Source: Myxococcales bacterium
GTDB lineage: Bacteria; Myxococcota_A; UBA9042
Assembly (NCBI GenBank): GCA_009692425.1
Contig: SHZF01000017.1
Coordinates: 5,714 to 69,713 of the forward strand
DNA length: 64,000 nt
Reading direction: 5' to 3'
The stretch's first letter is position 1; each line of letters opens with the position of its first letter. Positions 688 through 41,425 of this stretch are shown piece after piece. The notes beneath the pieces were generated by a model. It searched no databases, was not told the DNA's origin, and was given only the letters and a program-made list of their open reading frames with translations. Position numbers and translations under genes: made by a program.

Positions 688-702
688 GGCGGGTGGTTCT
701 CG

Positions 703-2741: not shown

Positions 2742-2790
2742 GAGCACGCAGTGTGGCACGCACGACCGGATGCGGCTAGGCTGCGCCCGC

Positions 2791-3585: not shown

Positions 3586-3699
3586 CCGTTTTTTTGCGAG
3601 CCTGTGCGACGCTGGCATCATGCAAGCGGCAGTGAATGTCGGCGCCGGGGCCGACGTTGCTGTCAGGACAGGGCGGCGACGCCTGCCGGGAGTCTGTTC

Positions 3700-4311: not shown

Positions 4312-4423
4312 CTCCGTGGCGAGCCAGCGCGCGCAAAGCGGTCAGCGGCCGGTCGACCTGCGGCGCGTGCTCGCGTGCGATGGTGTCACCGCATGGCTGT
4401 TCGGTGCGGGGCGCGTCGATGCA

Positions 4424-5614: not shown

Positions 5615-5718
5615 CGCTCCCAGCCGCCCACCGGCCCATCCTGCGCTTGCCGCCCCACAGCCACTGGACTACCGTGTCCGCGCCTGCGGCTAGGACCGCG
5701 CGTGTGGAGGGCTTTTCC

Positions 5719-6693
5719 ATGCTCGACAACTTCGGTCCGCTCGTCGTCGGCGCGATCGGCCTCGGCTTCCTGCTCGGCTCGTTCGTGACGGTGCGGCAGG
5801 GCACGGTCGGCGTGGTCACCATGTTCGGCAAGTACCGGCGCGTGCTGCACGCAGGCCTGAACTTCAAGCTGCCGTGGCTCGAGGCCATCCAGTCGCGCAT
5901 CAGCGTGCAGAACCGCTCGGTGGAACTCGAATTCCAGGCGATCACCGTCGATCAGGCCCAGGTCGGGTTCAAGGCGATGCTGCTCTACTCGGTGCTCAAC
6001 CACGACGAAGAGACGATCAAGAACGTCGCCTTCAAGTTCATCGACGAGCGCAGCTTCATGCAGGCGCTGGTACGCACCGTCGAGGGCTCGGTGCGCTCGT
6101 TCGTCGCCACGAAGCGCCAGTCAGAAATCCTCAAGCTGCGCAAAGAGATCGTCGATGAGGTGAAGGACCAACTCGACGCCTCGTTGGAGACGTGGGGCTA
6201 CCACCTGATCGACCTGCAGATGAACGACATCTTCTTCGACCAGTCGATCATGGACTCGATGGCGCGCGTCGTCGCGTCGGCCAACCTGCGCGCTGCCGCG
6301 GAGAACGAAGGCCAGGCGCTGCTCATCACGAAGACCAAGCAGGCAGAGGCCGAGGGCCGCGCCATTCAGATCACGGCGGAGGCCCAGCGCGAGGCGAGCC
6401 GGATGCAGGGCCAGGGCGTCGCCCAGTTTCGCGAGGAGATGGCCAAGGGCGTGCGGCAGTCGATCGCGGAGATGACGTCGGCGGGGCTCGACCCGTCGTT
6501 CCTGCTGTTCTTCATGTGGACAGAGGCGCTCAAGCATGTCGCCGAAAACGGCAAGGGCAACATGATCTTCCTCGACGGCTCGGTCGAGGGGATGGAGCGC
6601 ACGCTGCGCGAGATGATGGGCGTGGCGCGTATGGACAAGGGCTTCGACCGCACCCAGGCGCTGGCGGTGGGGCGCAAGCCGCCGGCCCCGTGA
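5719..6693 (+). CDS. SPFH/band-7 (stomatin/prohibitin-like) membrane protein
   Basis: N-terminal TM segment (LVVGAIGLGFLLGSF), then GTVGVVTMFGKYRRVLHAGLNFKLPWLE, which is typical of a band-7 domain. The C-terminal half is coiled-coil rich. GGAGGG RBS 8 nt upstream of ATG 5719. Confidence 0.8.
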   Translation: MLDNFGPLVVGAIGLGFLLGSFVTVRQGTVGVVTMFGKYRRVLHAGLNFKLPWLEAIQSRISVQNRSVELEFQAITVDQAQVGFKAMLLYSVLNHDEETIKNVAFKFIDERSFMQALVRTVEGSVRSFVATKRQSEILKLRKEIVDEVKDQLDASLETWGYHLIDLQMNDIFFDQSIMDSMARVVASANLRAAAENEGQALLITKTKQAEAEGRAIQITAEAQREASRMQGQGVAQFREEMAKGVRQSIAEMTSAGLDPSFLLFFMWTEALKHVAENGKGNMIFLDGSVEGMERTLREMMGVARMDKGFDRTQALAVGRKPPAP

Positions 6694-6893
6694 CGAGCCA
6701 TTGCGCCTGATCACGCCGGGCATCTGCGCCAGAACGCCGCGGCCCGACTGGAACTCTGCACGGACATTCATTATCGTCAACTCGGCAGGGCGGACCCGCG
6801 CCGGCACGAACGCGCCAACCTGCCAAAACCGTTGCCAACCACGATCCGTTGCGCGACAACGCGGACGCTGCCGCCCGCAGACTGAGCCCCACC

Positions 6894-8546: not shown

Positions 8547-8553
8547 CGGAACG

Positions 8554-10611: not shown

Positions 10612-10669
10612 CCGATCGGGCAGTTTCTCCGTTGCGTTCGCCGCTTATTCGGGCCAGCATGCCACTCTG

Positions 10670-13600: not shown

Positions 13601-13678
13601 ACCGGGAAGAATCTGGCCTGTCTCGTGGAACGAATCGCACAGTTGCAGGCGCCGTGGCGGGCCGACAAGACGACCTAG
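10670..13678 (+). CDS. plsB: glycerol-3-phosphate 1-O-acyltransferase PlsB (with about 200-aa N-terminal extension)
   Basis: Acyltransferase blocks are present: VPSHKSHIDYLVISY (HxxxxD), FFLRRSF, FFPEGGRSRTGKLLPPKMGL. The length and downstream conserved regions match PlsB. Start chosen at MSMAAEPQ after the upstream gene stop. Confidence 0.8.
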   Translation: MSMAAEPQNAAPRRADPPPAEDLMAPVAVSGDAPLPAERTPDAERAPGWPLPPVTRPVVPTPAEPLRALQPAVSRPVGDGLLPRDLRHPSGMVERFGLLVRWFAWVFFDKVQFPARIGNDVAAVAREGAVVYALHTISVLDYLYLNHVLPRHGLPLSQWANGVSMTLFQPWRRALAGWFARAVLRRPQPAETDVLHGHLRRRHAVTVFLRRAHSLVDVLTGRPDPAWLGELLAAQRQVGFPIHVVPMVLVWQRDPETPSTSILDAFFGDPEAPGRLRKLLSFLMNYRRAHVQAGEPIDLQRFLTAHAALRGEDLLVGRLRFLLVQALKAEQRVIRGAPVKPPHEVRHELLADPEVSADLERVAQQTGQPIAMVRAIADRDLREIGADFRMWMVATFSFVLTLIWARIYEGIEVDEEGLDRVREAGRRAPVVIVPSHKSHIDYLVISYIFYRHGLIPPHIAAGDNLSFFPLGWTFRRAGAFFLRRSFSGAPIYAAAFRHYVRKLLKDGHWIEFFPEGGRSRTGKLLPPKMGLMRNVLEAVADGVQTDVWLMPTNFGYERLIEEKSYKKELEGGEKTKESMGEVLKATSILVHKYGRIRVQFGAPVSVRALLEEHGALVAGVARDPHAFDRAVKVAAWRVLGRINEAAVITPTALVAAVLLTKIGKGIGREDLLLRVGFLLEGAVKRKAVLSEPLVTAIKMRRAQLHDAGQRDHHRHAESGGVADPLGEQSERARRMGQAVAGVVEPVLQMFAEGHWVVRKTFDSEDVLLVKKAGRLHLDYYKNNLLHLYVPEALLAASLLALRESNLGGARANGAGALDPVELQEQTKFLSRLLKFEFVYEPGISFEQQYQRTVDEFCAEGWLARDADGRLQLAATVVPAVRLYAKLIQNFIESYWVVGRALDGLKKGAMTEKAFLEHVQAEAEKAFDLGAVQCYEAVSKVNLSNALKIFIEQGFVRRAFEGSGKKSQPVLSVVVGEETGKNLACLVERIAQLQAPWRADKTT

Positions 13679-13694
13679 CCCGCTTGAAAGACCC

Positions 13695-15389
13695 ATGAAA
13701 TCGTTCGATCTGCATGTGCCCGTCGGGCCCGAATCGGCTCCCGGTGCCGGCGAACCTGCCGTGTTGCGCGCGGCGGCGGCGGCGACGGGCCTAGCGCCCG
13801 ACCGCGTGGGCACGGTGGTCATCCGGCGGCGTTCGCTCGATCTGCGCAAGCGCCGTCAGCCACAGTGGGTGTTGCGCTGCGACGTGTTCCAGACCGACGA
13901 AGTGCCGCCGTCGGGGGCCTTGCCGCCGCTCGTGCGGCCGTGGCGCCTGGGTAGGCCGCTGCCGGGCTTGCACCCCATCATCGTCGGCAGCGGTCCGGCC
14001 GGGCTTTTCGCGGCCCTGCAGTTTGCCGATGCCGGCGTGCGCTGCACGCTGCTCGAGCGCGGAGCGGCGGTCGAAGGGCGCAATCTCGACGTCCGCGACC
14101 TGCGCGCCGCGGGCACCCTCGACCCGGAGTCGAACCTGTGCTTCGGTGAGGGCGGCGCCGGCACCTACTCGGACGGCAAGCTTTTCACGCGCTCGAAACA
14201 CCCATTGGTGCGCGAGGTCTACGAACGCCTGGTGGCGCTCGGCGCAGGCCCGCAACTGCTGGTCGATCACCATCCGCACATCGGCACGAACCGGCTGATC
14301 CCGATGGTGCGGCGCCTGCGCGAGGCCCTGCTCGAAGCGGGCCATGACCTGCGCTTCGGCGCGCGCGTCGATGACTTGATCGTCAGGCCCGGCAGCGTAC
14401 GTCCCACGGTCGTCGGCGTGCGCCTGCAAGACGGCACCGAGATCATCGGCGGGCCGGTGCTGCTGGCCACGGGCCACTCGGCGCGCGACACCTACGCCAT
14501 GCTGGCCCGCCACGGCGTCGCGCTGCAGCGCAAGGACTTCGCAGTCGGCGCGCGCATCGAACATCCGCAGGCGTTGGTCGATGCGGTGCAACTCGGCGAC
14601 CTGGCGGGGCATGCGGCGATCGGGCCGGCGGAGTACTTCCTGGCGTGCCAGGTGCCAGGGCACGACGACGGGGCACGCGGCGTGTACTCGTTCTGCATGT
14701 GCCCCGGCGGATTCGTGCTGCCGACGCCGACGCAGGCCGGGCGACTGAACGTCAACGGCATGTCCAATTCCAACCGCGGCAGCGGCTTTGCCAACGCGGC
14801 ACTGGTGGCACAGGTGCGCGCTCACGAGTTCTGGCTCGAACGACCGGGCGATCTCGATGCCGATGCCGAATTCGGCGCCCACGTGGCCGGCGGTGCCTTG
14901 CTCGGGCTGGCGCTGCAGGATCGCTTGGAGGCGGCGTGCTTCGAGTCGGGTGGCGGAGGCTGCGTGGCACCGGCGCAGGGGGTGCTCGATTTCGTGGCCG
15001 GTCGTGACCCGGTGGCGCTGCCGGAACGATCGACCTACCGCCCCGACTTGCGCCTGGCGCGGGTCGATCGCCTGCTGCCCAGTCGCATCACGCGGGCGCT
15101 GCGCCTGGCGATGAGCGAGATCGACCGGCGCCAGTTGCGCGGGTACCTGAGTCAGTTCGGCGTCGTCATGGGCGTCGAGACGACGACGAGCGCGCCCGTA
15201 CGCATCGTGCGCGGCGACGATCTGCAGTCGATCAGCCACGCGGGACTGTATCCGTGCGCCGAGGGTGCCGGCTACGCGGGCGGCATCGTGTCGTCCGCGA
15301 TCGACGGGATGGAGGCCGCCCGCGCGGTCCTCGCGTGCCACAGTAGCGTTACGATGCCGGTCGCCGCCGCCGTGCGTCCTGCGGTTTGA
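13695..15389 (+). CDS. FAD-dependent oxidoreductase (COG2509-like)
   Basis: N-terminal Rossmann dinucleotide motif IIVGSGPAGLFAALQFADAG...LLERG with GEGGAGTYSDGKL. The C-terminal domain is typical of uncharacterised FAD-dependent dehydrogenases. Confidence 0.7.
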   Translation: MKSFDLHVPVGPESAPGAGEPAVLRAAAAATGLAPDRVGTVVIRRRSLDLRKRRQPQWVLRCDVFQTDEVPPSGALPPLVRPWRLGRPLPGLHPIIVGSGPAGLFAALQFADAGVRCTLLERGAAVEGRNLDVRDLRAAGTLDPESNLCFGEGGAGTYSDGKLFTRSKHPLVREVYERLVALGAGPQLLVDHHPHIGTNRLIPMVRRLREALLEAGHDLRFGARVDDLIVRPGSVRPTVVGVRLQDGTEIIGGPVLLATGHSARDTYAMLARHGVALQRKDFAVGARIEHPQALVDAVQLGDLAGHAAIGPAEYFLACQVPGHDDGARGVYSFCMCPGGFVLPTPTQAGRLNVNGMSNSNRGSGFANAALVAQVRAHEFWLERPGDLDADAEFGAHVAGGALLGLALQDRLEAACFESGGGGCVAPAQGVLDFVAGRDPVALPERSTYRPDLRLARVDRLLPSRITRALRLAMSEIDRRQLRGYLSQFGVVMGVETTTSAPVRIVRGDDLQSISHAGLYPCAEGAGYAGGIVSSAIDGMEAARAVLACHSSVTMPVAAAVRPAV

Positions 15390-24300: not shown

Positions 24301-24711
24301 CTACTCGCTCCAGCTGGAAACCTTGATGTGAATCTGCTGGTTCTCGTCGATCTTCTCTTCTTCGAGGGTGTAGCCGCGCTTCGTCACCTCTTCCTTCACG
24401 GTGTGGTAAGCATAGCGCTGCACGACCTTGCGCGTGAACTGGTCCTGATTGTAGCCCGCCGTCATCTCGACGAATTCCCAGTCGGCCACGAACGCCACGT
24501 TGCCGGTTTCCGCATCCACTGTGACACCGATGTCGTACGTTTTTGAGGCGTGGATCGCGATCTTCGCGCCGGTGGTCTGGCCGAGGTAGCCCTTGACCTT
24601 GACCGTCTCGTTCTCGTGGGCCTGGGTGAACGCGAAGCCGAGTTCCTTGAGCACGAGCACCAGGCGCGCGACATTGTTGATTTTCGTCTGGACGGTCGTG
24701 AAGTGGGACAT
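24301..24711 (-). CDS. DUF1257-like protein
   Basis: From internal Met MSHFTTVQTKINNVARLVLVLKELGFAF... (CAT at 24709-24711). The 30 codons upstream in the ORF are low-complexity. The stop sits 6 nt after the AAA ATPase gene stop. Confidence 0.6.
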   Translation of the reverse strand: MSHFTTVQTKINNVARLVLVLKELGFAFTQAHENETVKVKGYLGQTTGAKIAIHASKTYDIGVTVDAETGNVAFVADWEFVEMTAGYNQDQFTRKVVQRYAYHTVKEEVTKRGYTLEEEKIDENQQIHIKVSSWSE

Positions 24712-24716
24712 GGGGT

Positions 24717-26378
24717 CTACATCTCCAACCGCGCCTGTTTCTCGTCCGTTGGCGCCGCCTCGTCGGGCGGACTGGCCCGGCGCGCGCGCGACTTTGACCA
24801 CTCTCGCATTTCTGCGAGCCGCTCGCGCATGGTCATGCTCAACGGAATGATTTCCTTGATGTTCTGGATCAGCCTATCCGTCGTGATGTCCGTCTTGCCG
24901 AAGCCCTCGTCGTACGCGTCGTAGAGCGCGGCCACGATCACCTCTTCGAGTTCCGAGCCGGAATAGCCGCCCGAGGCTGCCACGAGCCGGTCCAGGTCGT
25001 AGCCGCCCGGATCGCGGTGGCGCTTCTTCAGGTGGATATCGAAAATAGCCTTGCGTTCCTCGCGGTTGGGCAGATCCACGAAGAAGATTTCATCGAAACG
25101 GCCCTTGCGCAGCAACTCGGGCGGCAGCATCGAGACGTCGTTGGCGGTCGCGATCACGAACACCGGGCTCGTCTTCTCCTGCAGCCACGTCAAGAACGTC
25201 GCGAACACACGCGCCGTCGTGCCGCCGTCCGACGAACCCGACGACTTCGTGCCCGAAAACCCCTTCTCCAGTTCGTCGAGCCACAGGATCGCGGGCGCCA
25301 CGGCTTCAGCCGTCTTGATGGCGCGGCGCATGTTCTCTTCGGACGAACCGACGAGGCTGCCGAACACCTTGCCGACGTCCAGGCGCAAGAGCGGCATCTG
25401 CCACCCCTGAGAAATCGCCTTTGCCGCCAGCGACTTGCCGCAACCAGGCACTCCCAGCAGCAGGATGCCCTTGGGCGGCGGCAGGCCGAACTCCTGGGCC
25501 GCGGGCGTAAACGCGTGGCGGCGCTTGTTGAGCCACTCCTTCAGGTAGAAAAGCCCACCGACCGACTCCATGCCGAGCGTCGTCTCGTAGAATTCGAGGA
25601 TGCCGGACTTGCGGATGATGTGCTTCTTCTCCGCCAGGATCGTCTTGAGACTGAAGCCCTTGTCGCGCACGGAAGTCTTTTGGAAGACTTGCGTCGCCTC
25701 CGACTCGGTCAGCCCGAGCGCGGCCTCGGCGATCTCGCGCTGCATTTCTGGATTCTCAAGCACCTTCGCGAAGTTCTTGCCATAGCGCTGCGACTTGGCG
25801 CCCGCGAACGCCTGCTCGCGCACGATGTCTTCGAGGGTCTGGCGGTCGGGCAGATCGAAATCGACGACGACGAGGTCCTTCTCCAGTTCCATCGGAATTT
25901 TGACGGTCGGGCTCAGGAACACGATCGACCGCTTCGCCTGGGTCGGGTCCTTGAACTGGCCAGGGATGTCGCGCACGCGGCGCGCCACCATGGGGTCGTT
26001 GAAAAACGGATGAAAATCGCGGAGCACCACGATCGCGTCGCGCGTCAGGTTGTTCGCGATCCAGTCGAGCGCGCGGATCGGGTCGCGGATGTCGCCCGGC
26101 ACGTCGGCCTGGTCGCAGCGAAATCCCTGGCTGCAGCTCCACTTGATCAGCTGACGCGGCTTCCACGTCGTTACATCCCAACGCTCGCGCAAGTGGGGAC
26201 TGTCGAGCACGGCGACATCGCGCAGCCAGCTCTCGACGCGGTCCTCCTCGGCCGACACGATGTAGATCAGCTTGTACTGGGCGCGGACGAGGTAGTGCAG
26301 TTCATCGACGGCGGCGGGCACGGTGCGCCCGGGCGACGCGGCGACGGCCTCAGCTATGGGAGAAGCGCTTGTAGTCAT
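24717..26378 (-). CDS. AAA+ ATPase (classic AAA/FtsH-Cdc48 clade) with about 300-aa N-terminal domain of unknown function
   Basis: Walker [19 protein letters not shown], Walker [12 protein letters not shown], sensor-1 [23 protein letters not shown] and Arg-finger region are present. The N-terminal 300 aa are uncharacterised. Confidence 0.8.
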
Positions 26379-30610: not shown

Positions 30611-31045
30611 TCAAGATTTGCCGGACGATCCGCCCGCTGCGGCGCGCAAAACCCGCCACGCAGCGCGGACGATGGCAACCGGTCGAGGGGCGACGGTGGC
30701 CCACGCGAGGCCGGTGCGCCGGGCGATTGCAGCCACCACGCCCATGCCAGGGACCGGGACCCGCCCGCCTCGCCACTCGATCGCGGCCACGCGACCGATG
30801 ATCGCAGACGCGGGCAGTTCCGGGTCGGCGGCCAGGTTCGTATCGCCGCGCGTGCGGATGCGATTGCCGTCGATGGCACGCACGCGGTGGACGAACACGG
30901 CGCCCGTGCGCGTGCCGACGAAAGCAACGACGTCGCCCGGACACAAGGCGGCAACTCCCACGCGCTCCAGGCCGACGCGCAAGGGGGCGGCGAGCGGCCA
31001 CATCGAGCGGCCGGCGACGTCGTACCAGTCCAATGGGTCGCACAC
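30611..31045 (-). CDS. S26/S24-family (signal-peptidase-like) serine peptidase, last gene of the rSAM cassette
   Basis: GRSMWPLAA matches the signal-peptidase Ser box (SM-P). CPGDVVAFVG...VHRVRAIDGNRIRTRGDTNLAADPE resembles the S26/S24 beta-barrel, including the conserved basic residue. Start tentatively GTG (VCDPLDWYDVAGRSMWP) at 31045. The longer 489-aa ORF overlaps the rSAM gene out of frame and is rejected. Confidence 0.5.
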   Translation of the reverse strand: MCDPLDWYDVAGRSMWPLAAPLRVGLERVGVAALCPGDVVAFVGTRTGAVFVHRVRAIDGNRIRTRGDTNLAADPELPASAIIGRVAAIEWRGGRVPVPGMGVVAAIARRTGLAWATVAPRPVAIVRAAWRVLRAAAGGSSGKS

Positions 31046-31131
31046 TTTGCCGGGAGGCGTCACGTTGCCGGGGAGCGTGTCGTTCACTTTGCCGGGGAGC
31101 GTGTCGTTCACTTTGCCGGGGGCTGCACGCG
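31040..31131 (-). repeat. three to four degenerate copies of a 24-bp unit spanning the rSAM stop codon
   Basis: cactttgccggggagcgtgtcgtt occurs perfectly at 31085-31108, with degenerate copies immediately before and after. On the minus strand the rSAM 3' end ...CCGGCAAAGTGA is re-iterated as ACGACACGCTCCCCGGCAAAGTGA. Confidence 0.7.
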
Positions 31132-32286
31132 GGCGCCCTGGCCCTTCTTTGGGCGGTAGATCGGAAAAACGAACCGCTCCGGGCGCGGCAGGCGTGGGCC
31201 GCCGCTGGGCACGCCTTGCCACACCTCCGGACCCAGCGGTTGGCCGGTCGCGGCTTCGTAGGCGGCCATCCGGTAGCGTGTTTGCTCGTGGAACTGCACG
31301 GGAGCCTTGCGAAAGTCGCCTGTCTGCTTGAACGCCTCGCCAGGGCAGTACGCACAATGGCCGCTGCCGCCACACGACGTGCAACTCGTCCGATCGCGGT
31401 TCTTCCACGCCACGATCTGCTGGCGCTCCACCGAGCCGCGCCAGATGGCGGCAAACGACTGTTCGCGCAGGTTGCCCAGCGCCATGGGGAACTGCGCGCA
31501 CGGCCACACCGCGCCATCGGGGGTCACGTAGGCCCGGCTGCGACCGGCACTGCACGCGCCCTGGCCCTGGCGTTCCGACACCGGTGGCCGCGGGGGAGCC
31601 GGCGTCAAGCGCAGGCGTTTCTCCTCGGCGCGCTGGAAGTCGGCCGGCGGCATGGCGAGCACGTCGAGGTCCTCGTTGCCCAGGTGGTTGCGGAAGATGT
31701 CGTTGCCGAACACCACGTTGCAGCCCTGCGCGCTGAAGCAGGCGAAGAGGGCTTCCATCTCGTCGATCGTGTTGCTCTGCACGACGCAACTGACGCGCAC
31801 GGCCACGCCCGCCGCGCGCAGTTCGGCGATGCCCGCGCACGTCGCCGCCAACGATCCGGCGCGCTGGGTAAAGGCGTCGTGCACGGCGGGGCGCAACGAG
31901 TAGACGCTGACATGGACTTGCGCGATGCGCAGCGCGGCGAGGTGGCGGGCGCGCGCGGCGTCGATCAACCCGGCGTGCGATTTCAGGGTCTGCGCGAACC
32001 CGCGCTGGGCCGCATACGCCAGCAGTTCGTCCATGTCGGCGCGTTCGAACAGTTCGCCGCCCGACCAGAGCAGCTTCCACACGCCGAAGTCGGCAAGTTG
32101 GTCGACGAGGGCCCGCAGTTCAGCCCCCGTCATCTCCGGCCAGGTCGTGCGGTTGTCGAGGTAGCAGTGTTTGCACGCCAGTCCACAGCGGTAGGTCGCG
32201 TCGATGTGGACGGTCTGCGGGACGTCGGCGCGCTGCACCGCGGCGTGCAAGGCCTGTGCGATTTCCCTGGAAGCGGCCGTGATCAC
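31108..32286 (-). CDS. radical SAM / SPASM-domain peptide-modifying enzyme
   Basis: CGLACKHC is the canonical CxxxCxxC, with HIDATYR ahead of it. C-terminal SPASM-type Cys cluster: CSAGRSRAYVTPDGAVWPC...CTSCGGSGHCAYCPG. I chose the GTG start at 32286 because it overlaps the HprK-like stop as GTGA (translational coupling). The alternative ATG at 32355 would overlap that gene by 73 nt. Confidence 0.8.
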   Translation of the reverse strand: MITAASREIAQALHAAVQRADVPQTVHIDATYRCGLACKHCYLDNRTTWPEMTGAELRALVDQLADFGVWKLLWSGGELFERADMDELLAYAAQRGFAQTLKSHAGLIDAARARHLAALRIAQVHVSVYSLRPAVHDAFTQRAGSLAATCAGIAELRAAGVAVRVSCVVQSNTIDEMEALFACFSAQGCNVVFGNDIFRNHLGNEDLDVLAMPPADFQRAEEKRLRLTPAPPRPPVSERQGQGACSAGRSRAYVTPDGAVWPCAQFPMALGNLREQSFAAIWRGSVERQQIVAWKNRDRTSCTSCGGSGHCAYCPGEAFKQTGDFRKAPVQFHEQTRYRMAAYEAATGQPLGPEVWQGVPSGGPRLPRPERFVFPIYRPKKGQGARVQPPAK

Positions 32287-33158
32287 GCGGACTCCTGCTG
32301 GGCTGCGTACGCCGCCAGGGTCTCGGCAATGGTCTCTGGCGAATCGTCGAGACAATGCGACAGGAGTCCCACCGGAACGTCCCGACCGAGGGCCGCCGCA
32401 GCGTCGAGCAACCAGGGCGTGGCGGCGCCGCCGGCATAGTAGGCCCGCGCCAGGACGAGTGCGGCCCGCTCACCTGCAGGCGCGGCGACGACCTCGGTGC
32501 GGGTGCGCACGTTGGGCAGCAACACGAACAGGCCCCCGAGCGGCAGCACAAGCGCGTGTTCGCCAGGCAGGCCGCGCCACTCCGCATGGTGCCAGGCGGT
32601 CCAACCTGCCGGCGTCGGCACAAGGTACGCGATCTCGTCGTGGCTCGCCACGCCCGGAAACCGCCTGGCGAGCGTCGTCTTGCCCACTCCGCTGTGCCCC
32701 GCGATGACCCACGCACGCCCGCCCGCCTGCAAGGTCGCCGCGTGCAGGGCGATGCCGCCGCGCACCAGGACTTCTGCGAGGCCCGCCGTGAGCATGCCTT
32801 CGACGGCCGCGTCGTGGACCCCTTCCGGCTGTTCGTGGGGCACGTGCAGGGTCAGCGTTCCTTGGGCCGAGGTCCGGTCCAACTCGACCGACGCCCACGG
32901 GGCGCGCGCGGCATAGCCGTTGGCGTCAAAGCGACTGAACACGACGGATTCTTGGCGGCTGCCAGGCACCGCGCGGTAGCCAAACCGGATCGCAGCGGGC
33001 CCTTGTCGTTCCAGCCAACGTCGCCTGAACACAGGCCCGCAGTGGGCCGGAACCTCGAATTGCAGCGTCACGGGTCCAAACCGGACATCCGGACGCCGAA
33101 CCGGCAGGCCGCGCGCGTGAAGGTCTTCGAGCAGCGAACCCGCTCGGCTGCCGGGCAT
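32283..33158 (-). CDS. HPr-kinase C-terminal-domain-like P-loop protein (HprK-related)
   Basis: HAATLQAGGRAWVIAGHSGVGKTTLA is a P-loop in the HprK/P C-domain context. 291 aa. The start lies 3 nt after the precursor ORF stop. Confidence 0.7.
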   Translation of the reverse strand: MPGSRAGSLLEDLHARGLPVRRPDVRFGPVTLQFEVPAHCGPVFRRRWLERQGPAAIRFGYRAVPGSRQESVVFSRFDANGYAARAPWASVELDRTSAQGTLTLHVPHEQPEGVHDAAVEGMLTAGLAEVLVRGGIALHAATLQAGGRAWVIAGHSGVGKTTLARRFPGVASHDEIAYLVPTPAGWTAWHHAEWRGLPGEHALVLPLGGLFVLLPNVRTRTEVVAAPAGERAALVLARAYYAGGAATPWLLDAAAALGRDVPVGLLSHCLDDSPETIAETLAAYAAQQESA

Positions 33159-33160
33159 CG

Positions 33161-33334
33161 TCAGTCCGTCGTGGAGTTAAGGGTGTCGCAGCCAGGGATG
33201 TTGGTACCCAGCAATTCGAGCAGTTCGGCGTCGACCGTCTGGATCGCTGGCGCCGCGTAGGGAGCCTTGGCGGGCACACCTGTGCTGCCGTCGCTCTCGC
33301 CCTGCGGCGTGTTCGGAGAGTCGTTCATCTGCAT
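33161..33334 (-). CDS. candidate RiPP precursor peptide (57 aa)
   Basis: MQMNDSPNTPQGESDGSTGVPAKAPYAAPAIQTVDAELLELLGTNIPGCDTLNSTTD. AGGAG RBS (reverse complement of 33340-33344) 6 nt upstream. Stop TGA at 33161-33163 lies 3 nt before the HprK-like start. Leader-like amphipathic ELLELL segment; single Cys in a C-terminal GCDTLNSTTD tail. Confidence 0.5.
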   Translation of the reverse strand: MQMNDSPNTPQGESDGSTGVPAKAPYAAPAIQTVDAELLELLGTNIPGCDTLNSTTD

Positions 33335-33393
33335 GGCCCTGCTCCTGGTGGCGCGCCTCAGCGCCGCGCCAAAGGGGAAAAACGCCCCCGTCG

Positions 33394-36300
33394 TCAGTAC
33401 ATGATCACGAGCGACCCGTCCGTGGATCCGATGGCCGCGTCCGCGACGCCGTCGCCCGTGAAGTCGTCGAGCGGCGCGATGCCCACACCGCCCCATGAGT
33501 TCGAACCGATGCCCCACTTCGGGTCGCCGGGCTTGAACGGGTTGCCGAATTCGATGTCGGCCACGGCGTAGCTCGCGGCAGTTCCCGTCGCCGAAGCTCC
33601 GGCCGCGCCGGGCCGCACCAAACCGTGCCGAATGGTCACGATGGACGATGCGCCTGGCATGAAAAACGCCGGCCGGCCGTGGATCAGGTCGACACTGCCG
33701 CCGCCAGCCGCGCCGACCTTGCCGAAGCGCTGCAGCCCGGCCACGAATGCGTCGGCCACAAACCCGTGGGGAACCTGGTAGAGCCCCGTTTCGCCGGGCA
33801 CCGGCGTAGTTAGCAGGAACGCCACGCCGCCGAGCGATTTGTTCAGCGCACTCCCGCGCAGCCAGTAGATGCCGCCCGTCTTGCCGAACGAAGAGCCGCC
33901 CTGCTGCTGGATCACGAGATCGACCAGGCCGTCGCCATCGAACTCGACGGCATCCATCTGGAAGCCGATCACGTTCGCGCCGAACTGCGTCGCCGACGTC
34001 CCCGCGCTCACGTGGACGGCACTCGCGCTCGCTGGCAGCGTGGTGTCGTACTGGGCAAACTCGAGCACCTGATCCCCCGCCGCCGGCCGCCCCTTGACGA
34101 GGCGCACGCACTCCGCCGACGTCGACTGTTGGATGCCCACGTCTTCATACTGGGTGCCCTTGCCGTCGCCATCGAGCAGCAGGTTGCCGAGGCCCCAGAT
34201 CGCCGCCCCGAAGACTGGCGCACTGACCGGATTCTTGATGTTCAGCGTGATGACATTGTTGTCCTTGCGCTGCGTGGCGTTGTCGATGTCGATCGTCAGC
34301 GTCTTGCCGTCCGCGAGCGTCGCGTTGCCGGGCACGATCAGGACACGGGTGTAGGTGACCGTCGCCGTCGGAAAGGTGGTGACGCCGAACGAGTCGATCG
34401 GCAGGCCGGCCGCCGACTTGGCTCCGGTGAAGTTGCCGGTCACGTTCATGCGCAGGACGCCGAACGGCAACGGGTTCACGATGCCCGTCACGATCAGCGC
34501 CGGCGTCTTGCCCAGCGTGCCGGCCTTCTTGCCCAGGTACACGTGCACGCTGCGCAGCTTGCCCACGCCGATGCCGTTGCCGACCACGAGATCGCCGATG
34601 CCGTCGCCGTTCATGTCGGCTGCGCGCCCCGTCGTGGCACCCAGGCCGCCGTCCTTGTTGTCGAAGCAGGTGTAGCCAGTGCCGTCGAGGCTGTCGATCG
34701 TCAGCGCCGCCAACAGGCCGTCGGCGCCCGCCTTGCGGCCGTAGACGACACACAGGGGAGCTTTTTCGCCGCCGCCCGCCACGAAGTCCGCCAGGCCGTC
34801 GCCGTTGAGATCGCCGACTGGGAAAGCCCGCGAACGGAACTCGGGCACGTCGAACAGGCCCTTGGTCACCACCTGCAGGTAGCGCAGCCGCAAGTCCTTC
34901 GTCGTGATGACGTTGGAAACCGGCGAGCGGTTGCCCGCGGCGTCGACCGCCTGGATCGCGAATGCGTACTGGGTGATGCCGTCGTCGACCATCGGATTGA
35001 ACTTGCAGACGTCCGAGCCCACGCGCGGGTCGGGACCGTCTACCTGAATCGTTTCGTTGCCGCCAGCGTCCGTCGGGGTCGAAATCTTCGCAAACGGCAG
35101 GGCCTTGGCATCGCACGCCGCCTTGAACTCGGTCTCGTTGGCGAGCGCCGTCTTCTTGACGTAGCGCACGTCGTAGCTCGCCGCCTTGCCCGTCAGCCCG
35201 TCGTCGCCAACCGCCGTGAAGCGCAGCGCGATGCCGGGCAGCCGCGGCTTGAGGTCGCTCGCCTGCAAGGGCAGGAGCACGGGCGCGGCCGGCGGCGTCC
35301 AGTCCGCCTTGATCGCAATGGAGGCCTCGGCCGTATTGCCCAGCGCATCTTGCACGGTGGCGCGCACGATGTTGGTCGCGTTCTCCTGCAAGGTCGCGTG
35401 CTGCACCTCGACGGTGGCCGTACCGGCGGTGTCGAACGTCTTCGGCAACGTGACGGACTTCTGTGCCAGGTCGGCAGCCGCGCCACCCGCGACCGTGCGC
35501 TGCAGCGCAGTCACCTTGCCACCCTTGAGGCCGCTGTCGGTGACCTGCAAGAGCAAGTGGAGTTGGTGGCCGGGCGTGGCGGGGTCGGTGTCGGACGGTT
35601 TGCCGACCGTGCCGCTGACGCCCCCTGGGGTCGCGACGCTCTGCACGGTGCCTGCAACCCACTGTGCCACGGGATTCGTCAAGTCGGCGAGCACACCGAT
35701 CGCCCCCGTGCTGCCCTTTGCGGTGCCGACGGTCACGCCCTCGAGCGAGAACTTGGCGCCATCGGCCACCGTCACATCGAAGGTGGCGACGGACGCGGTC
35801 GGCGCCTTGCTCGCGACCTCCTTGCCATCCTTCAACAGCTGGACCGCCGTGACCGTGCCGCACGGGCCGAAGAACTCCACCATGACCTTGGCAGCCACGC
35901 TCGCGCAGTTCTTGCCCTTGTCGGCGCAGGACTGTGTCGTGAAGGCGCCGCCTTGCGGAAGCCCCTTCATCGACAGGAGGCAGCCCGACAGCTTGACGGC
36001 GAAACCCTGCTCGACCTTGGCCGTGTTGCCCGAGGAGTCCTTCGCCGTCAGCCGCGCCGAATAGTTCGGGGTGGCGCCGAACGGCACGGTCAGCAAGATC
36101 GTCGGCTCCTGCTTGCCGGGTGCGGTGACCGTGCCGCTGCCCACGGGCGCGTAGCCGGCACACTTGGCGAACGTCGCATCGCAGTCCGCGCCCAATTCGA
36201 GCGTCCATGATACAGCGTCGGTCGTGGTGAACTGCACCGTGACCTGGTAACCGCCCACGGCGGGCGCCGCGTCGGCAGCGTCAGCAAACGTCGCACCCTG

Positions 36301-39300
36301 CGCAGGTGCATCGATCTTCAACACGGGGGGCTTGGTATCGACCCCAACGACGGCCGGCGTCGTCTGGACCGTCGCGGTGTTGCCGCACGCGTCGATGAGC
36401 TCTGCCGTCAGTTCATGCTGACCGTCACCGAGCACGCCGTACTTCGCGTGGGGATACTTGGTCGCGCCGCTGGCGAACGCTTCGGTCGCCTTCGTCACGC
36501 CGGCGTCCTTCAACACCGCGGCTTTGCCCTCGACATCGACCGTGCCGGCGTCCGCGATCAGTTCGATGTCGAGTGGATCGCCCGCCAGCAGGGTCGCCTT
36601 GCCTGTAGCCGGCACCGCAAACGTCGCCGCCGGCTTCGTCGTGTTGACTTGCCACGTCTGCGCGGCCGACTCCTTGCCCTTGTTGCCGACCGCGTCCAGC
36701 GCCTTGGCGACGACCGTGACGGCCCCTTCGACCGGGATCGGCACGTTGAGGGTGACGGTCTTGTTCTGCGACTGCGCCGTCGCCGCGATGGCATCGTTGA
36801 CCAGCACGAACACCAGCGCATCCTCGTTGGCCAAGGTGGCGACGAACTTGAACGTGCCGCCGGCCTTCGTGTCGGGTGCGGCGTCGAGCTTGCCCGACAG
36901 GCAACCGGCGGGCACATCGGCAGCGCTCGGCCCGACCAGCGACGCCAGCACCGGCACGATGCTGTCGAGCACGATGGTGCGGTCCTTGCCGGTGATGGAC
37001 GGGCTGCCGAGCGACGACGTCCAGTCGATGCCGGTCCCTGCGTCGGACGTCTCGGCGGTGAAGTGGTACTTGCCGTCCGTCAGCGCCGACATGTCAAAAT
37101 CGATCAGGTTGTTCTGCGACTTCGTGATCGAGACGACTTCGTTGTACCCGGCTTGCTTGCACGGGCCCTTGCCGACGCCCGGCGTGTCGGAGCACAGCCG
37201 CACCAGCGCGCCCGACGGCATGCCGATCACGTTGACGGTGATGGTCTTGGACGAATCCGCGTTCCACGGGGTCGCACACGTTCCGCCCGCGCAGACGCCG
37301 AGGCCGCACTCCGCCGTCGCCGTGCACGGCTTGGCCACGATGCCCAGGGGGGACTGGAACTGGATTTCAGGCTGCTTCGAAATCACAGTCGCGACCACGG
37401 TCTTCGAAGCCGGGTTGCCCGCCGCGTCTGCGGTCGCGAACACGATCTTGACCTTGTTGCCGTCGGGCAGCGTGACGACCCCGAAGCTCACCGCACCGAT
37501 CTGACCGTCGGACACGTCGGCAGCGACCGTGGCCGGATAGCTGCCGTTCTTGGCGCCGTTGTCGTCGAACACGTCGGCAACGACCTTCGTGCCGGCGCTG
37601 ACGCCCGACACCTGCACCTGCAGGTTGACCTGCATGCCGTCCGCCGGGTTCTGGTTCACGTCGTCGAGCGCCGCCAGCGTGAAGGTCGCGGCGCCGCCCT
37701 TGGCCGGCGAAGACAGGCTGCCGAAGACCGGCGCGGTGCGGTCGATCTTGATCGTGACGACTTTGGATGTCGCCGTCTGGTTGGCCGCATCGACCACCTT
37801 GGCGGTCAGTTCACACGTCGTCTGATCGGCCAGCACGATGCCGGTGAACGGCGCTTTGCCCGCAGCTACGACGCCCGCCACCGCCTTGGATGCCGCGCCG
37901 CACTTGACGGTCAGGGTCACCGCGCTGTCGTCCTCGGCATCCGTCGTCGCCACATCGACCTGGGTCACACAGTTCGCCACGCCTGGCAGACACGCAGCCG
38001 CCGTCAGGTTCAGGTTCGACCCGTCGGTCGGCGCGGTGATCGTGGCCGTGGGCAACTTGTTCTTGAAGCCGAGGTCGATCGCCGCGGAGTAGCCGATCGC
38101 CTTGGGCGTGGCGGCGAGGTAGGCGCCGACTTGCAGCGTAGTTGAGCCCTTCGACAGGCCGCTGATTTCGAACGAGTACGTGCCATCGCCGACATCGGTC
38201 ACCGGGGCAGCGACCTTGGCGCCGTTGACGAGCACGTCGAGCGTCGCGCCGGGCATGGCCGCGCCGTTGGGCTTGGCGACCTTGACCTTGACCGTCAGCT
38301 TGTCGGTGATCACGCTGCCTGAGCCAAGCGGTTGCAGGAACGTGACGACCGGCGCCTCGGAAACGAGCGTGATCGTGCTGACCGCCGTCTTGGTGACGTT
38401 GCCGACCGTGTCGGTGGCGGTCGCATGGACCGCATTCGGTCCCGCCTGCAGCGAGATGCCCTCGAAGACCACCTTGCCCTTGCCGAGCAGGCCGGATTGA
38501 CAGGAAACCTTGGCGCCGCCGACGTATACGCACGCACTGGCCGCGTCGGCACTGGTCACGGTCAATTCGACATCGATCTGGTAGCCGGGCTTGGGGTCCG
38601 AGTCGAGGTCGTCGGCAGCCGTCAGGGTCGCTTTCGAAGGCAGCGTGATGGCGACGCTCGGCCCCTTGGAGTCGAGCGTGAAGTTGCGCTTGACGGTGGA
38701 ACAGGTCTGCTCCGAAGCGACGTTGCCGAGCAGATCGGTGGCGTCGAACGTGATGACGTAGGCGCCATCGGGCAGCGTCTCGGCCGGCGCTCCGACTTGG
38801 AGGGCGAGCGTGGTCGACAGCAGACCCTTCTTGGGCTGGCCGACCGCCAGCGCCGGATACGCGCCCCCGCCCGGCACGGCAATGACGGCCTTGACGTCGC
38901 GGTTCTCGAGGTTCGTGGTCGTCAGCGCCACGTTGAACGACGCCGTGGTCAGCGTGACGTCGCCTGCCGGCAGCGCCACTTTCAAGCATGGCGCGGGCAG
39001 GGCCACGGTGACGGCAACGTCCTTTTCCGACTGGCTGGGGTTCGGCGCATTGTCCTTGGCCATGCACGTCACAGCGGAGCCCAGGCTCTCCACGTCGATG
39101 ACGACGGGGACCGCCAACGAAGTCGCGGCTGCGTCGGAAAACTTCGCCGAGCCCGATGCCGTCGGCGGATACGCCACGTTTGGCCCGGACTTGCGGCAGA
39201 AGATCGACACCTCCGTGCTGAGGTCCGGTGCGGCCTGAAAGTTCACCGTCACGGTCGTCTCGTACGTGAGCGCCGTTTCGGGCTTGCCGTCGTTCTTGGC

Positions 39301-40530
39301 GTACAGCACCGAGCCGCCGACCGGGTCTGCGATGACCATCTTCCCCTGCCCGGCAAAGACCACGTACGTCGTCGACAGCGACTTTTCGAGGCCGCAGCCA
39401 TTCTTCGCGGTGATCTGCAGCGCGTAGCTGCCCGATGACGGAAACGAGACGGGAATCGAGAACGTATTGTCGATGTCGAGGCTGACGGCCGGCAGGTCCT
39501 TGCCGTCGAGCTTGGCCGTGATGCCGTTCTTGTCGGCCGTCGTCAGCGTCGATGCGGTGCCGACGATCACGGTCTGGATGCCGGGCGCGGCCGCGTCCTT
39601 GTCGTCGCTGTTCTTCAGCACATTCTTCTTGTCCGGCGTGGGCTGCAGGATCGTCAGGGTCGGCGCCTTCGTGCCGACGCTCACCGCCAGCGGGTCCGAA
39701 GGGGTCGAGGGGCGGCCCGGATGGTCCTCGTCGCTGACGAACGCCTGCACGGTCGCGGTCTTGCCGTCGACTTCATCGTTGCTGGGCGGCGTGAGCGTCG
39801 CCGTGATGAGTGCGGAACCGCCGACGAGCAACACCTTGGCCGTATCGGACTTCGCGCCCTCCGTCGTCGTGACCGCGAGCCGGGCGTGCGTGCAGCCGAC
39901 CGACTTCGTCGTTACCTTGAAGTTGGCCTGCAGGCCGGGCGTCTGAGGGTCCACGTCCGTATTCTGGCAGCCGGCCGTGAACGCCTTGACGTCGGCCAGG
40001 CAACTGTCGGTGCAGTCGAGCTTGATCGACTTGATCTCTGACGAGGCGTCGCCGCCGGGCACCTTCGCGACCACGGAGATGTTCGGAGCCACCGTGCTGC
40101 ACTCCAGCGTGATCTTGAGGCGCGCTGCATTGCTCTGCGCCTTGGCGGTCGCCTTCGTCACGCCGTCGATCTGGACTTGGAGGTCGGTGCCGTTCGGCAC
40201 GTTCGTCGTCGTCACAACGACATCGACCTGCACGCCCAGTTCCGGGTACTTGTCTGCGTCGAGTGCGACCGTCGCCGTCGATGCGGTTTCGAGCACGTTG
40301 CCGTCCTTCGTTTCGACGAAAAAGGCAACGGTGGGCTTGACGACCGGGACGTCCTGCGTGTCGCCGCCGCCCGCGTCCGACGTCGCGTCGGCGGGGCACG
40401 CCACTTTGCCGCAGGGCCCCCCGACAGGTTCGTCATCGCTACAGGCTGCGAGTCCCGCGCACAGGCTGGCGGCGACAAGCGCTCGCAAGGACACGGAAAC
40501 ATGGCCGTGCTGCTTGAGTACCCCGATCAT
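33394..40530 (-). CDS. giant cell-surface lipoprotein (2378 aa) with Ig-like repeats and C-terminal FG-GAP/VCBS repeats
   Basis: AAGGAGAG RBS, then MIGVLKQHGHVSVSLRALVAASLCAGLAAC (lipobox). A long beta-rich T/A/V/G-rich repeat region follows. C-terminal Ca-binding FG-GAP-like motifs: DLNGDGLADFVAGG, DMNGDGIGDLVVGN, FDGDGLVDLVIQQ, DDFTGDGVADAAIGS. Plus-strand ORFs across this span are antisense shadows. Confidence 0.8.
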   Translation of the reverse strand: MIGVLKQHGHVSVSLRALVAASLCAGLAACSDDEPVGGPCGKVACPADATSDAGGGDTQDVPVVKPTVAFFVETKDGNVLETASTATVALDADKYPELGVQVDVVVTTTNVPNGTDLQVQIDGVTKATAKAQSNAARLKITLECSTVAPNISVVAKVPGGDASSEIKSIKLDCTDSCLADVKAFTAGCQNTDVDPQTPGLQANFKVTTKSVGCTHARLAVTTTEGAKSDTAKVLLVGGSALITATLTPPSNDEVDGKTATVQAFVSDEDHPGRPSTPSDPLAVSVGTKAPTLTILQPTPDKKNVLKNSDDKDAAAPGIQTVIVGTASTLTTADKNGITAKLDGKDLPAVSLDIDNTFSIPVSFPSSGSYALQITAKNGCGLEKSLSTTYVVFAGQGKMVIADPVGGSVLYAKNDGKPETALTYETTVTVNFQAAPDLSTEVSIFCRKSGPNVAYPPTASGSAKFSDAAATSLAVPVVIDVESLGSAVTCMAKDNAPNPSQSEKDVAVTVALPAPCLKVALPAGDVTLTTASFNVALTTTNLENRDVKAVIAVPGGGAYPALAVGQPKKGLLSTTLALQVGAPAETLPDGAYVITFDATDLLGNVASEQTCSTVKRNFTLDSKGPSVAITLPSKATLTAADDLDSDPKPGYQIDVELTVTSADAASACVYVGGAKVSCQSGLLGKGKVVFEGISLQAGPNAVHATATDTVGNVTKTAVSTITLVSEAPVVTFLQPLGSGSVITDKLTVKVKVAKPNGAAMPGATLDVLVNGAKVAAPVTDVGDGTYSFEISGLSKGSTTLQVGAYLAATPKAIGYSAAIDLGFKNKLPTATITAPTDGSNLNLTAAACLPGVANCVTQVDVATTDAEDDSAVTLTVKCGAASKAVAGVVAAGKAPFTGIVLADQTTCELTAKVVDAANQTATSKVVTIKIDRTAPVFGSLSSPAKGGAATFTLAALDDVNQNPADGMQVNLQVQVSGVSAGTKVVADVFDDNGAKNGSYPATVAADVSDGQIGAVSFGVVTLPDGNKVKIVFATADAAGNPASKTVVATVISKQPEIQFQSPLGIVAKPCTATAECGLGVCAGGTCATPWNADSSKTITVNVIGMPSGALVRLCSDTPGVGKGPCKQAGYNEVVSITKSQNNLIDFDMSALTDGKYHFTAETSDAGTGIDWTSSLGSPSITGKDRTIVLDSIVPVLASLVGPSAADVPAGCLSGKLDAAPDTKAGGTFKFVATLANEDALVFVLVNDAIAATAQSQNKTVTLNVPIPVEGAVTVVAKALDAVGNKGKESAAQTWQVNTTKPAATFAVPATGKATLLAGDPLDIELIADAGTVDVEGKAAVLKDAGVTKATEAFASGATKYPHAKYGVLGDGQHELTAELIDACGNTATVQTTPAVVGVDTKPPVLKIDAPAQGATFADAADAAPAVGGYQVTVQFTTTDAVSWTLELGADCDATFAKCAGYAPVGSGTVTAPGKQEPTILLTVPFGATPNYSARLTAKDSSGNTAKVEQGFAVKLSGCLLSMKGLPQGGAFTTQSCADKGKNCASVAAKVMVEFFGPCGTVTAVQLLKDGKEVASKAPTASVATFDVTVADGAKFSLEGVTVGTAKGSTGAIGVLADLTNPVAQWVAGTVQSVATPGGVSGTVGKPSDTDPATPGHQLHLLLQVTDSGLKGGKVTALQRTVAGGAAADLAQKSVTLPKTFDTAGTATVEVQHATLQENATNIVRATVQDALGNTAEASIAIKADWTPPAAPVLLPLQASDLKPRLPGIALRFTAVGDDGLTGKAASYDVRYVKKTALANETEFKAACDAKALPFAKISTPTDAGGNETIQVDGPDPRVGSDVCKFNPMVDDGITQYAFAIQAVDAAGNRSPVSNVITTKDLRLRYLQVVTKGLFDVPEFRSRAFPVGDLNGDGLADFVAGGGEKAPLCVVYGRKAGADGLLAALTIDSLDGTGYTCFDNKDGGLGATTGRAADMNGDGIGDLVVGNGIGVGKLRSVHVYLGKKAGTLGKTPALIVTGIVNPLPFGVLRMNVTGNFTGAKSAAGLPIDSFGVTTFPTATVTYTRVLIVPGNATLADGKTLTIDIDNATQRKDNNVITLNIKNPVSAPVFGAAIWGLGNLLLDGDGKGTQYEDVGIQQSTSAECVRLVKGRPAAGDQVLEFAQYDTTLPASASAVHVSAGTSATQFGANVIGFQMDAVEFDGDGLVDLVIQQQGGSSFGKTGGIYWLRGSALNKSLGGVAFLLTTPVPGETGLYQVPHGFVADAFVAGLQRFGKVGAAGGGSVDLIHGRPAFFMPGASSIVTIRHGLVRPGAAGASATGTAASYAVADIEFGNPFKPGDPKWGIGSNSWGGVGIAPLDDFTGDGVADAAIGSTDGSLVIMY

Positions 40531-40642: not shown

Positions 40643-40936
40643 TCAGACCGGTTGGCGCTCCAGCACGCGGCGGACGACCAACTCATCCAAGAAATTCAAG
40701 ATGTCTGCTAGCGCGCGCGCCAAGCCGACGTCGTAGCGTGCGGCAACGAGCCCAGCCAGGGCCACGGCATCGGCCGTGCCGGCGGCGATGGCTTCGAACA
40801 CATCGACGGCGGTGCCGGGCAGCAGGCGGTGAAACGCGCGGTCGTCCGTCACGACGAAGACTTCGCCCCCGACGCAGCGGTGTGCGGCGAGTGGATGGAC
40901 GCGGTAGCGAACGGCGGTGTCGGTTGGGGTGCTCAT
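40643..40936 (-). CDS. PqqD-family protein (RiPP recognition element-like peptide chaperone)
   Basis: MSTPTDTAVRYRVHPLAAHRCVGGEVFVVTDDRAFHRLLPGTAVDVFEAIAAGTADAVALAGLVAARYDVGLARALADILNFLDELVVRRVLERQ matches the PqqD length and pattern. The longer 251-aa ORF N-terminus is R/P-rich and rejected. Confidence 0.65.
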   Translation of the reverse strand: MSTPTDTAVRYRVHPLAAHRCVGGEVFVVTDDRAFHRLLPGTAVDVFEAIAAGTADAVALAGLVAARYDVGLARALADILNFLDELVVRRVLERQPV

Positions 40937-41425
40937 CGCAGTCAAGCCTTGGGACGGGCAAAAGCCAGCGCCGAATGCGTGTAGGTGGGACGCGGGCCGC
41001 TCGCTGCGGCTGTTGCCCCGGACTTGGTGGCCGACGGCGGCCAAAAAGTTGCGCGCACAATTCTTTGGCTCAGCACCAGCGGCGAGCGCTGAATCCGGCC
41101 TCGTGCCGCAGGGTTCGAATTCGGTCAGCACCCTCCCGACGAGCGGCGCACAGTCGAAGCCGGTCCCGACCCACGACCGACAATGCCCGCTGCCGTGCAT
41201 TGTGCAGCACGGGGGTGGCACTGACAAGGGCACCCGCCGCCCCCGGTCCACCGCCTTCGGCGCAGTTCTGCGTTGTCGCTGCGGAATCGGCGTTCGAAGT
41301 ACCGGGTGTCCGTCTTCAGGCCGACTCCTTGCTCCGCCTTGATCGGCATCCGAATTCGGCGGCCGGGGATGGGAGGCGGTGGTGAATCCTGGCCGCAAGC
41401 CAGCAACACGATTGCAGACTGCCGG

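Follow-up and report, generated by a model that had tools for sequence, protein, structure and literature searches.

A putative RiPP-type maturation cassette combining a ScmC/HprK-like protein, a radical SAM/SPASM enzyme and an S26B-like peptidase in uncultured Myxococcota

What do four tightly packed genes on the minus strand of a Myxococcota contig accomplish together, and is a small open reading frame (ORF) at their head the substrate of the other three? The stretch analysed here, 64 kb of contig SHZF01000017.1 from a metagenome-assembled 'Myxococcales bacterium' (the window; G+C about 70%; locus tags EXR79_07390 to EXR79_07400), carries on its minus strand, from position 33334 down to 30611, four genuine genes. 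They encode, in this order, a 57-amino-acid (aa) peptide, a ScmC/HprK-like P-loop protein, a radical S-adenosylmethionine (rSAM)/SPASM enzyme and an S26B-like peptidase. The cassette is probably an operon for the cytoplasmic maturation of a ribosomal peptide of the RiPP type (a peptide synthesized by the ribosome and modified after translation). What we propose below for the individual chemical steps and for the product is much less certain.

An earlier sequence-only reading of this locus had described four packed minus-strand genes, including a GTGA shared by the HprK-like and the rSAM gene, and all four ORFs were confirmed at these positions (Table 1). The tight packing that it reported is real, but its gaps of 3 nt need correction. 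The junctions are, in order, a 2-nt gap between the 57-aa ORF and the ScmC-like gene, a GTGA overlap between the ScmC-like and the rSAM gene and another GTGA overlap between the rSAM and the peptidase gene. The G+C content by codon position of all four genes matches that of their neighbours (for the 57-aa ORF, 0.59/0.52/0.81 at the first, second and third position, GC1/2/3). In the NCBI annotation, the ScmC-like protein is shortened to 219 aa and the 57-aa precursor gene is unannotated; both ORFs are called at full length in an ENA assembly. Since the N-terminus of the ScmC-like protein is conserved, 291 aa is its correct length. The four cassette genes are conserved together, and their translation is coupled. 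Between 26 and 42 kb of the window, no Rfam family was detected.

The same gene order recurs in about 12 related loci from Myxococcota metagenomes (compared loci bear L numbers below), with identities of 47-76% for the rSAM enzyme, 35-71% for the peptidase and 32-72% for the ScmC-like protein and with invariant catalytic residues. Without the close relative L001 the values are 47-58%, 35-48% and 32-41%, respectively, at 76-84% identity of the flanking AAA protein. Because the order is conserved at such identities, the cassette has been kept through real divergence. Contigs of relatives include GCA_964201005.1 CAXNCS010000004.1, GCA_020632665.1 JACKFC010000011.1 and ERZ27257034 k141_59847. The related loci end inside a giant gene upstream of the cassette, so that our comparisons cover part of this gene and the genes downstream of it. 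In every readable family contig, the gene for a giant Big_13/FG-GAP protein (approx. 2,350-2,390 aa) is followed by the small ORF and the genes for the ScmC-like protein, the rSAM enzyme and the peptidase, and genes for TPR and LysM proteins usually come next. In L008 and L017, two inserted genes part the cassette from the downstream TPR and LysM genes, and the giant homologue still lies directly upstream of the small ORF. A scan of metagenome contigs with a six-sequence peptidase alignment added four further loci, all from the same clade. A related but rearranged cassette with a discrete PqqD gene was found in an unrelated metagenome contig, L011 (positions 1387-8205), the one case met here in which the S26B-like and ScmC-like families accompany an rSAM/SPASM enzyme outside the clade. 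It consists of genes for an S26B-like protein, a PqqD protein, an rSAM enzyme, a 59-aa Ser/Thr/Cys-rich precursor and a ScmC-like protein, followed by a gene for a 1,113-aa Peptidase_C25 (gingipain-like) protein. Separately, genes for an AAA ATPase, a DUF1257 and a DUF2997 protein and an unnamed gene (window positions 24301-26378, minus strand) are conserved downstream in all syntenic loci; L005, L006 and L013 have them at the same position, with the AAA protein 76-84% identical.

The 57-aa peptide has the organization of a precursor. Its leader contains Y26-x-x-P29-x-I31, 17 residues from the junction L41-L42|G43-T44, and an invariant Cys49 is followed by a variable, acidic and Ser/Thr-rich tail. 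The sequence-only reading had made its proposal depend on whether the small ORF is conserved beside the HprK-like gene. All relatives with sequence at this position have it, and it carries a common motif. Homologous small ORFs were found at the same place in nine other loci, and the precursors range from 53 to 65 aa. Common to all ten precursors of the clade are, in this order, R..[YW]xxPx[VIM]x[ST], roughly nine further residues, [LV]L[GAST][ST], zero to five residues and the invariant Cys, behind which 8-17 variable residues follow. Most family members have this single Cys. Even the distant 59-aa peptide of L011 (TYEKPLL) retains YxxPxL, a VL-S junction and the Cys. An aromatic residue stands 17 residues before the LL|[GAST] junction in 11 of 11 precursors (18 in three of them); the position after LL is always Gly, Ala, Ser or Thr, and the position two before that one is always Leu or Val. 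A motif scan identified the 57-aa ORF as the sole carrier of the leader motif in the window. Read from its sequence, the precursor has no hydrophobic signal sequence. Signal peptidases obey a -1/-3 rule. With Leu or Val at -3 and a small residue at -1, this rule fits cleavage one residue past LL (G43|T44). The 59-nt gap in front of the precursor gene (positions 33335-33393, minus strand) contains two small hairpins rich in G+C. One is GGGGG..CCCC with TTT behind it, the other GGCGCG..CGCGCC, and both lie just 5' of the precursor ribosome-binding site. They could adjust the level of the precursor message relative to that of the giant gene.

A radical SAM/SPASM architecture had been claimed for the third gene, and the profile search placed both Pfam domains above their cut-offs (Radical_SAM PF04055, 53.3 bits; SPASM PF13186, 49 bits). 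Cys34, Cys38 and Cys41 form the CX3CX2C motif. These and six SPASM cysteines (245, 263, 302, 305, 311 and 314) are invariant in 22 relatives, and a C-terminal extension of about 75 aa is conserved. Since a seventh SPASM cysteine is missing, the second auxiliary cluster would need a residue other than Cys as its fourth ligand, e.g. Asp324 (invariant) or His333 (near-invariant), unless that site is open. The enzyme family is sharply bounded, comprising about 35 clusters or proteins at 44-100% identity, and the next match follows at 37%. Every NCBIfam equivalog scores far under its cut-off (ScmE, 76.6 versus 400 bits). The best sequence match in the PDB is SkfB (1.1e-8), and StsB and AlbA align across most of the length. 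Like these sactipeptide and ranthipeptide maturases (SkfB, AlbA, StsB, PapB), which target a precursor Cys, the window protein is an rSAM/SPASM enzyme. Unlike them, it has no N-terminal RiPP recognition element (RRE) domain, contains six rather than seven SPASM cysteines and scores far under the cut-offs. The nearest outgroup rSAM enzymes, 34-37% identical, occur in L018 (metagenome, positions 1-3500) and L010 (metagenome-assembled genome of Thermomonas, positions 9700-13100), where the cassettes encode an HprK/ScmC-like protein, PqqD, the rSAM-SPASM enzyme and NTP_transf_5 (nucleotidyltransferase). Near its cassette, L010 additionally encodes another HprK-like protein, another PqqD and an ABC transporter.

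For the ScmC-like protein, the best NCBIfam match is ScmC itself (TIGR04249), at 27.8 bits versus a cut-off of 125, followed below cut-off by the HprK-related kinases A and B; the HPr-rel-A/HprK-related kinase models TIGR04352 and TIGR04355 gave 16.6 and 17.8 bits where 200 are required. ScmC was the top NCBIfam match in 43 of 51 family members (best E 6.2e-10, none above cut-off), and the precomputed Pfam match is PF27840 ScmC. Hpr_kinase Pfam domains produced no match at E values up to 0.1, and the context is that of a peptide cassette, not of HPr and carbon-catabolite control. The protein has a P-loop kinase domain of the HprK/PEPCK fold with an H...GxSGxGK[ST]...D[DE] motif. Within the family, this motif is conserved as H139-x14-G154-x2-G-x-G-K160-[ST]...D174-[DE], with the spacing found in the lasso-precursor kinase BsfK, which scores 48 bits against the family profile. 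We regard the protein as a putative ATP-dependent precursor-peptide kinase. A profile search of the ScmC/HprK-like superfamily retrieved 582 cluster representatives at E<=1e-3, of which 56 reached E<=1e-10. A profile of three close ScmC-like proteins found no relatives in the genome contigs, and the broader alignment yielded there, among the matches listed, just two distant HprK-like loci, L009 and L010. The HprK-like match in L009 (Acidovorax sacchari chromosome, positions 6500-15100) lies in an apparent lasso-peptide cluster and has an Asn-synthetase-like cyclase, a sulfotransferase-like ORF and an ABC transporter as neighbours.

The fourth gene had been read as an S26-like peptidase. The ORF is intact, with conserved catalytic residues, and the S26 assignment can now be narrowed to S26B (Ser/His) and to a soluble protein without anchor. 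Ser36, His75 and Asp90 as well as GxSMxPL, GD, HR and GDT are invariant across loci. The peptidase falls under all curated cut-offs (TIGR02228, 26.8 versus 51.85 bits, E 3.9e-6; PF10502, 13.1 versus 22.9) and carries no Pfam annotation in any record. Its family profile matches human SEC11C and SEC11A with SM.P, HRV and GD[TN] aligned. The AlphaFold2 (AF2) model has a predicted local distance difference test (pLDDT) score of 85.8 and matches LexA, SEC11A and SpsB in Foldseek. The homologue in L011 matches the models for TIGR02228, SipW and the nickel superoxide dismutase (NiSOD) maturation protease. A hydrophobic N-terminal segment or membrane anchor is absent, and the C-terminus forms a helical hairpin. 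In each of the five relatives compared at this junction, the start of the peptidase gene either overlaps the stop of the rSAM gene or is at most 3 nt away. Judged from sequence and model, the protein is a soluble S26B-like (Sec11/SipW-type) Ser/His/Asp enzyme, not a frameshifted remnant, and a putative leader peptidase. It shares the SM.P, HR[VL] and GD[TN] motifs and the clan SF fold both with the S26B signal peptidases (Sec11, the archaeal enzymes and Bacillus SipW) and with the soluble S26 NiSOD maturation protease (TIGR02754). In contrast to the signal peptidases, it has a C-terminal hairpin and no anchor, and its putative substrate has no hydrophobic signal. The NiSOD maturation protease is a precedent for a dedicated S26 enzyme that removes a propeptide. 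A 2023 review of RiPP leader proteases mentions neither S24/S26 nor signal peptidases (PMC10885120). At the rSAM stop/peptidase start overlap of the window lies a 24-bp tandem duplication (31060..31121, 2.6 copies, 97% matching in Tandem Repeats Finder). Up to four in-frame GTG starts result from it, as does a repeat of GKVNDTLP at the peptidase N-terminus, where residues 1-20 have low pLDDT. The duplication is missing in L001, the closest relative.

Upstream of the cassette and on the same strand lie the giant lipoprotein gene and, 7.3 kb away, a PqqD-family ORF that ends 113 nt before the giant gene starts. The PqqD-like ORF was detected by Pfam and was not picked up by a three-sequence PqqD profile or by tblastn. 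Aligned to the cassette PqqDs of L011, L018 and L010, it gave an hhalign E value of 2.7e-4 over 76 columns. GC1/2/3 of the 97-aa PqqD stretch is of the coding type (0.77/0.47/0.81), versus 0.68/0.64/0.71 in the upstream part of the same ORF. Its product is a candidate leader-binding chaperone (RRE). A sigma-70-like site (41227..41199) is found about 260 nt upstream of this ORF. The giant lipoprotein has an N-terminal lipobox, LAAC, and lacks the leader motif. Only 59 nt separate its gene from the precursor gene, and a scan of this gap found neither promoter nor terminator. The proposed four-gene order recurs in about 12 loci, and the unit probably reaches further upstream, to the PqqD-family ORF and the giant gene. 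It may comprise six genes: pqqD-like, giant lipoprotein, precursor, kinase-like, rSAM and peptidase.

Table 1. Coordinates of the cassette genes and of the two upstream genes in the window.
Feature	Position	Strand	Remarks
57-aa ORF (precursor)	33161..33334	-	ATG 33334, TGA 33161; AGGAG 7 nt 5' of start
291-aa ScmC/HprK-like P-loop gene	32283..33158	-	ATG 33158, stop 32283
392-aa rSAM/SPASM gene	31108..32286	-	GTG 32286, stop 31108; AGGAG 7 nt upstream
166-aa S26B-like peptidase gene	30611..31111	-	GTG 31111, stop 30611; 166 aa also in NCBI record
Giant lipoprotein gene, ~2,378 aa from ATG 40530	33394..40530	-	Big_13, Big_3_3 Ig-like and C-terminal FG-GAP (Pfam)
97-aa PqqD-family ORF	40643..40936	-	Pfam PF05402, 26.4 versus cut-off 23.4 bits, E 8.8e-6

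How does the cassette relate to known systems? A link to SynChlorMet-type and HPr-rel cassettes had been suspected, and it is supported by ScmC as the best NCBIfam match and by the nearest outgroup rSAM enzymes, which belong to cassettes of HprK-like, PqqD and rSAM genes. The SynChlorMet cassette (ScmC TIGR04249, ScmD TIGR04248, ScmE TIGR04250, ScmF TIGR04251) is itself uncharacterised. Both systems combine a ScmC-type HprK-like P-loop protein with rSAM/SPASM maturase(s) and a PqqD-family protein, which in the window is a candidate encoded upstream of the giant gene. However, the window has one rSAM enzyme instead of ScmE plus ScmF, no PqqD among the cassette genes and scores far under the equivalog cut-offs, and it has an S26B-like peptidase and an identifiable precursor. 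The cassettes of L018 and L010 resemble that of the window in a related rSAM enzyme adjoining an HprK/ScmC-like protein and PqqD. They differ in having their own nucleotidyltransferase and a PqqD inside the cassette and in lacking an S26-like peptidase and an adjoining giant lipoprotein gene. We regard the cassette as an uncharacterised variant of the rSAM peptide-maturation cassettes, related to the SynChlorMet and HprK-PqqD-rSAM types.

The leader and the kinase motif resemble those of lasso peptide clusters. In Bradymonas sediminis, the HprK-like protein BsfK, whose catalytic motif has been given, phosphorylates a lasso precursor in a reaction that depends on the leader and on an RRE; kinases of the ThcoK and PadeK type are cited in the same work (PMC10368454). 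Clusters with BsfK, BsfB1 and BsfA have in common with the window YxxPx[L/V/I] at -17 to -12, a small residue at core position 1, a PqqD-type RRE, in the window a candidate, and the kinase motif H...GxxGxGK[ST]...D[DE]. When the window precursor, YAAPAIQTVDAELLELL|GTNIPGCD, is set against BsfA, YKKPQLTYHSTLAAIIR|GTSGNEVD, the leader motif stands in equal register. Unlike the lasso clusters, the window has an rSAM/SPASM enzyme and an S26B-like peptidase in place of the cyclase and the B2 protease, and the sole fixed core residue of its family is Cys, not a ring-forming Asp or Glu. In line with this, a lasso cyclase (query from L009) and BsfB2 found no tblastn match in the 64-kb window at E values up to 1, and none of the related locus tables contains a lasso cyclase or a B2 protease. 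An FG-GAP repeat protein, considered 'presumably not involved', flanks the kinase-lasso cluster of the Myxococcota relative Bradymonas sediminis (PMC10368454). The window cassette likewise adjoins an FG-GAP protein, possibly by coincidence.

The sequence-only reading did not recognise the four-gene arrangement as a described system, and we agree. None of the curated NCBIfam families claims any of the four cassette proteins, and literature searches on SynChlorMet, ScmC, HprK-related proteins and HPr kinase with radical SAM turned up nothing relevant to this arrangement. The cassette is one among many rSAM-RiPP families that are uncharacterised. What sets it apart is an S26B-like peptidase, a leader of the lasso type in the absence of lasso enzymes and a giant gene lying within the presumed unit.

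Maturation might involve the following steps. The PqqD-like protein would bind the leader and present the peptide. The kinase-like protein would phosphorylate a Ser or Thr of the precursor, for which the invariant Ser/Thr at position 44 by the junction is the best candidate. The rSAM enzyme would modify the single invariant Cys49, most likely by a thioether bridge to a residue in the variable C-terminal tail. The S26B-like peptidase would remove the leader, either at L42|G43 according to the lasso register or at G43|T44 according to the signal-peptidase rule. Several observations weigh against a RiPP-type maturation operon or against parts of this scheme. The phosphate acceptor is a guess, and the precursor of L003 has no Ser or Thr after its Cys. 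The thioether was proposed only because of the invariant Cys and the weak similarity to SkfB. The seventh Cys usual for SPASM domains is absent, and no RRE is detectable in any of the three cassette enzymes. The PqqD-like ORF barely exceeds the Pfam cut-off and is parted from the cassette by a 7-kb gene. An exporter or immunity gene was found neither within the cassette nor adjoining it. Moreover, synteny in this one clade spans far more than the cassette. Gene order there is partly inherited rather than selected, and taken alone it is therefore weaker evidence than it appears.

The constant company of the giant gene raises the question whether the peptide is released at all. With the same biosynthesis, the matured peptide might be a partner, a ligand or a cofactor-like subunit of the giant Ig-like/FG-GAP lipoprotein instead of a free natural product, a reading that we consider unlikely. 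At the same low probability, the giant gene would be an integral part of a split operon, and the peptide, crosslinked at its Cys and possibly phosphorylated, would perhaps act as an assembly factor. A parallel can be drawn to quinohemoprotein amine dehydrogenase, whose rSAM-crosslinked small subunit QhpC undergoes processing by a peptidase and joins large periplasmic subunits. The giant gene has the PqqD-like ORF on one side and the precursor on the other. In each related locus, L008 and L017 with their insertions included, a homologue of it immediately precedes the small ORF, and the intergenic gap is short and without a terminator in the scan. In addition, the cassette is apparently vertically inherited, single-copy and free of transporter and immunity genes, a pattern more in keeping with a housekeeping function than with an antibiotic cluster. 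However, all that speaks for an interaction is adjacency, in a clade whose synteny is broadly conserved anyway. The enzymes are cytoplasmic and the lipoprotein is an exported protein, and the cassette has no linked exporter. The leader motif does not occur in the giant protein, and the related cassettes of L011, L018 and L010 do without such a protein. 

The rSAM/SPASM enzyme might also act on a protein or a small molecule, in the manner of sulfatase maturases or heme-type enzymes, with the small ORF not being its substrate. This is improbable, although the enzyme lacks an N-terminal RRE domain and none was detected in the other two enzymes either. Among NCBIfam models, NirJ2 and AhbD match the enzyme best, and a relative bears the name 'AdoMet-dependent heme synthase' in one source, but the scores of 115-118 bits compare with cut-offs of 500. 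As these values are far under the cut-off and no tetrapyrrole genes lie nearby, an identity as AhbD/NirJ heme synthase was rejected. Sulfatase genes are likewise absent from the vicinity. The small ORF is co-conserved and carries an RRE-type leader motif and the invariant Cys, and related rSAM enzymes in L011 and in the outgroup cassettes are paired with PqqD and HprK-like proteins. Chance adjacency or decay of genes without joint function, conceivable since spurious ORFs are numerous in sequence of 70% G+C and since the peptidase and the ScmC-like protein stay under curated family cut-offs, is effectively ruled out by the observed conservation: the catalytic residues are all intact and do not vary, GC3 is of the coding type, AF2 models are of high confidence, and the rSAM-peptidase start/stop overlap recurs in the relatives checked at 35-58% identity.

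If the interpretation as a RiPP-type maturation operon is correct, the cassette would represent a new family that joins a lasso-style leader, an HprK-like peptide kinase and an rSAM/SPASM enzyme. An S26B enzyme of the signal-peptidase kind would serve as a dedicated cytoplasmic leader peptidase, adding a protease family that the 2023 review does not list, and ScmC/SynChlorMet-type proteins would gain their first candidate substrate. Clear and checkable predictions follow from the one invariant Cys and from the conserved junction. Across this uncultured Myxococcota clade, the cassette is fixed beside a giant surface protein. A peptide in the service of that protein is the less likely but more interesting outcome, as RiPP machinery would then have been put to a new use in the biology of the cell envelope.

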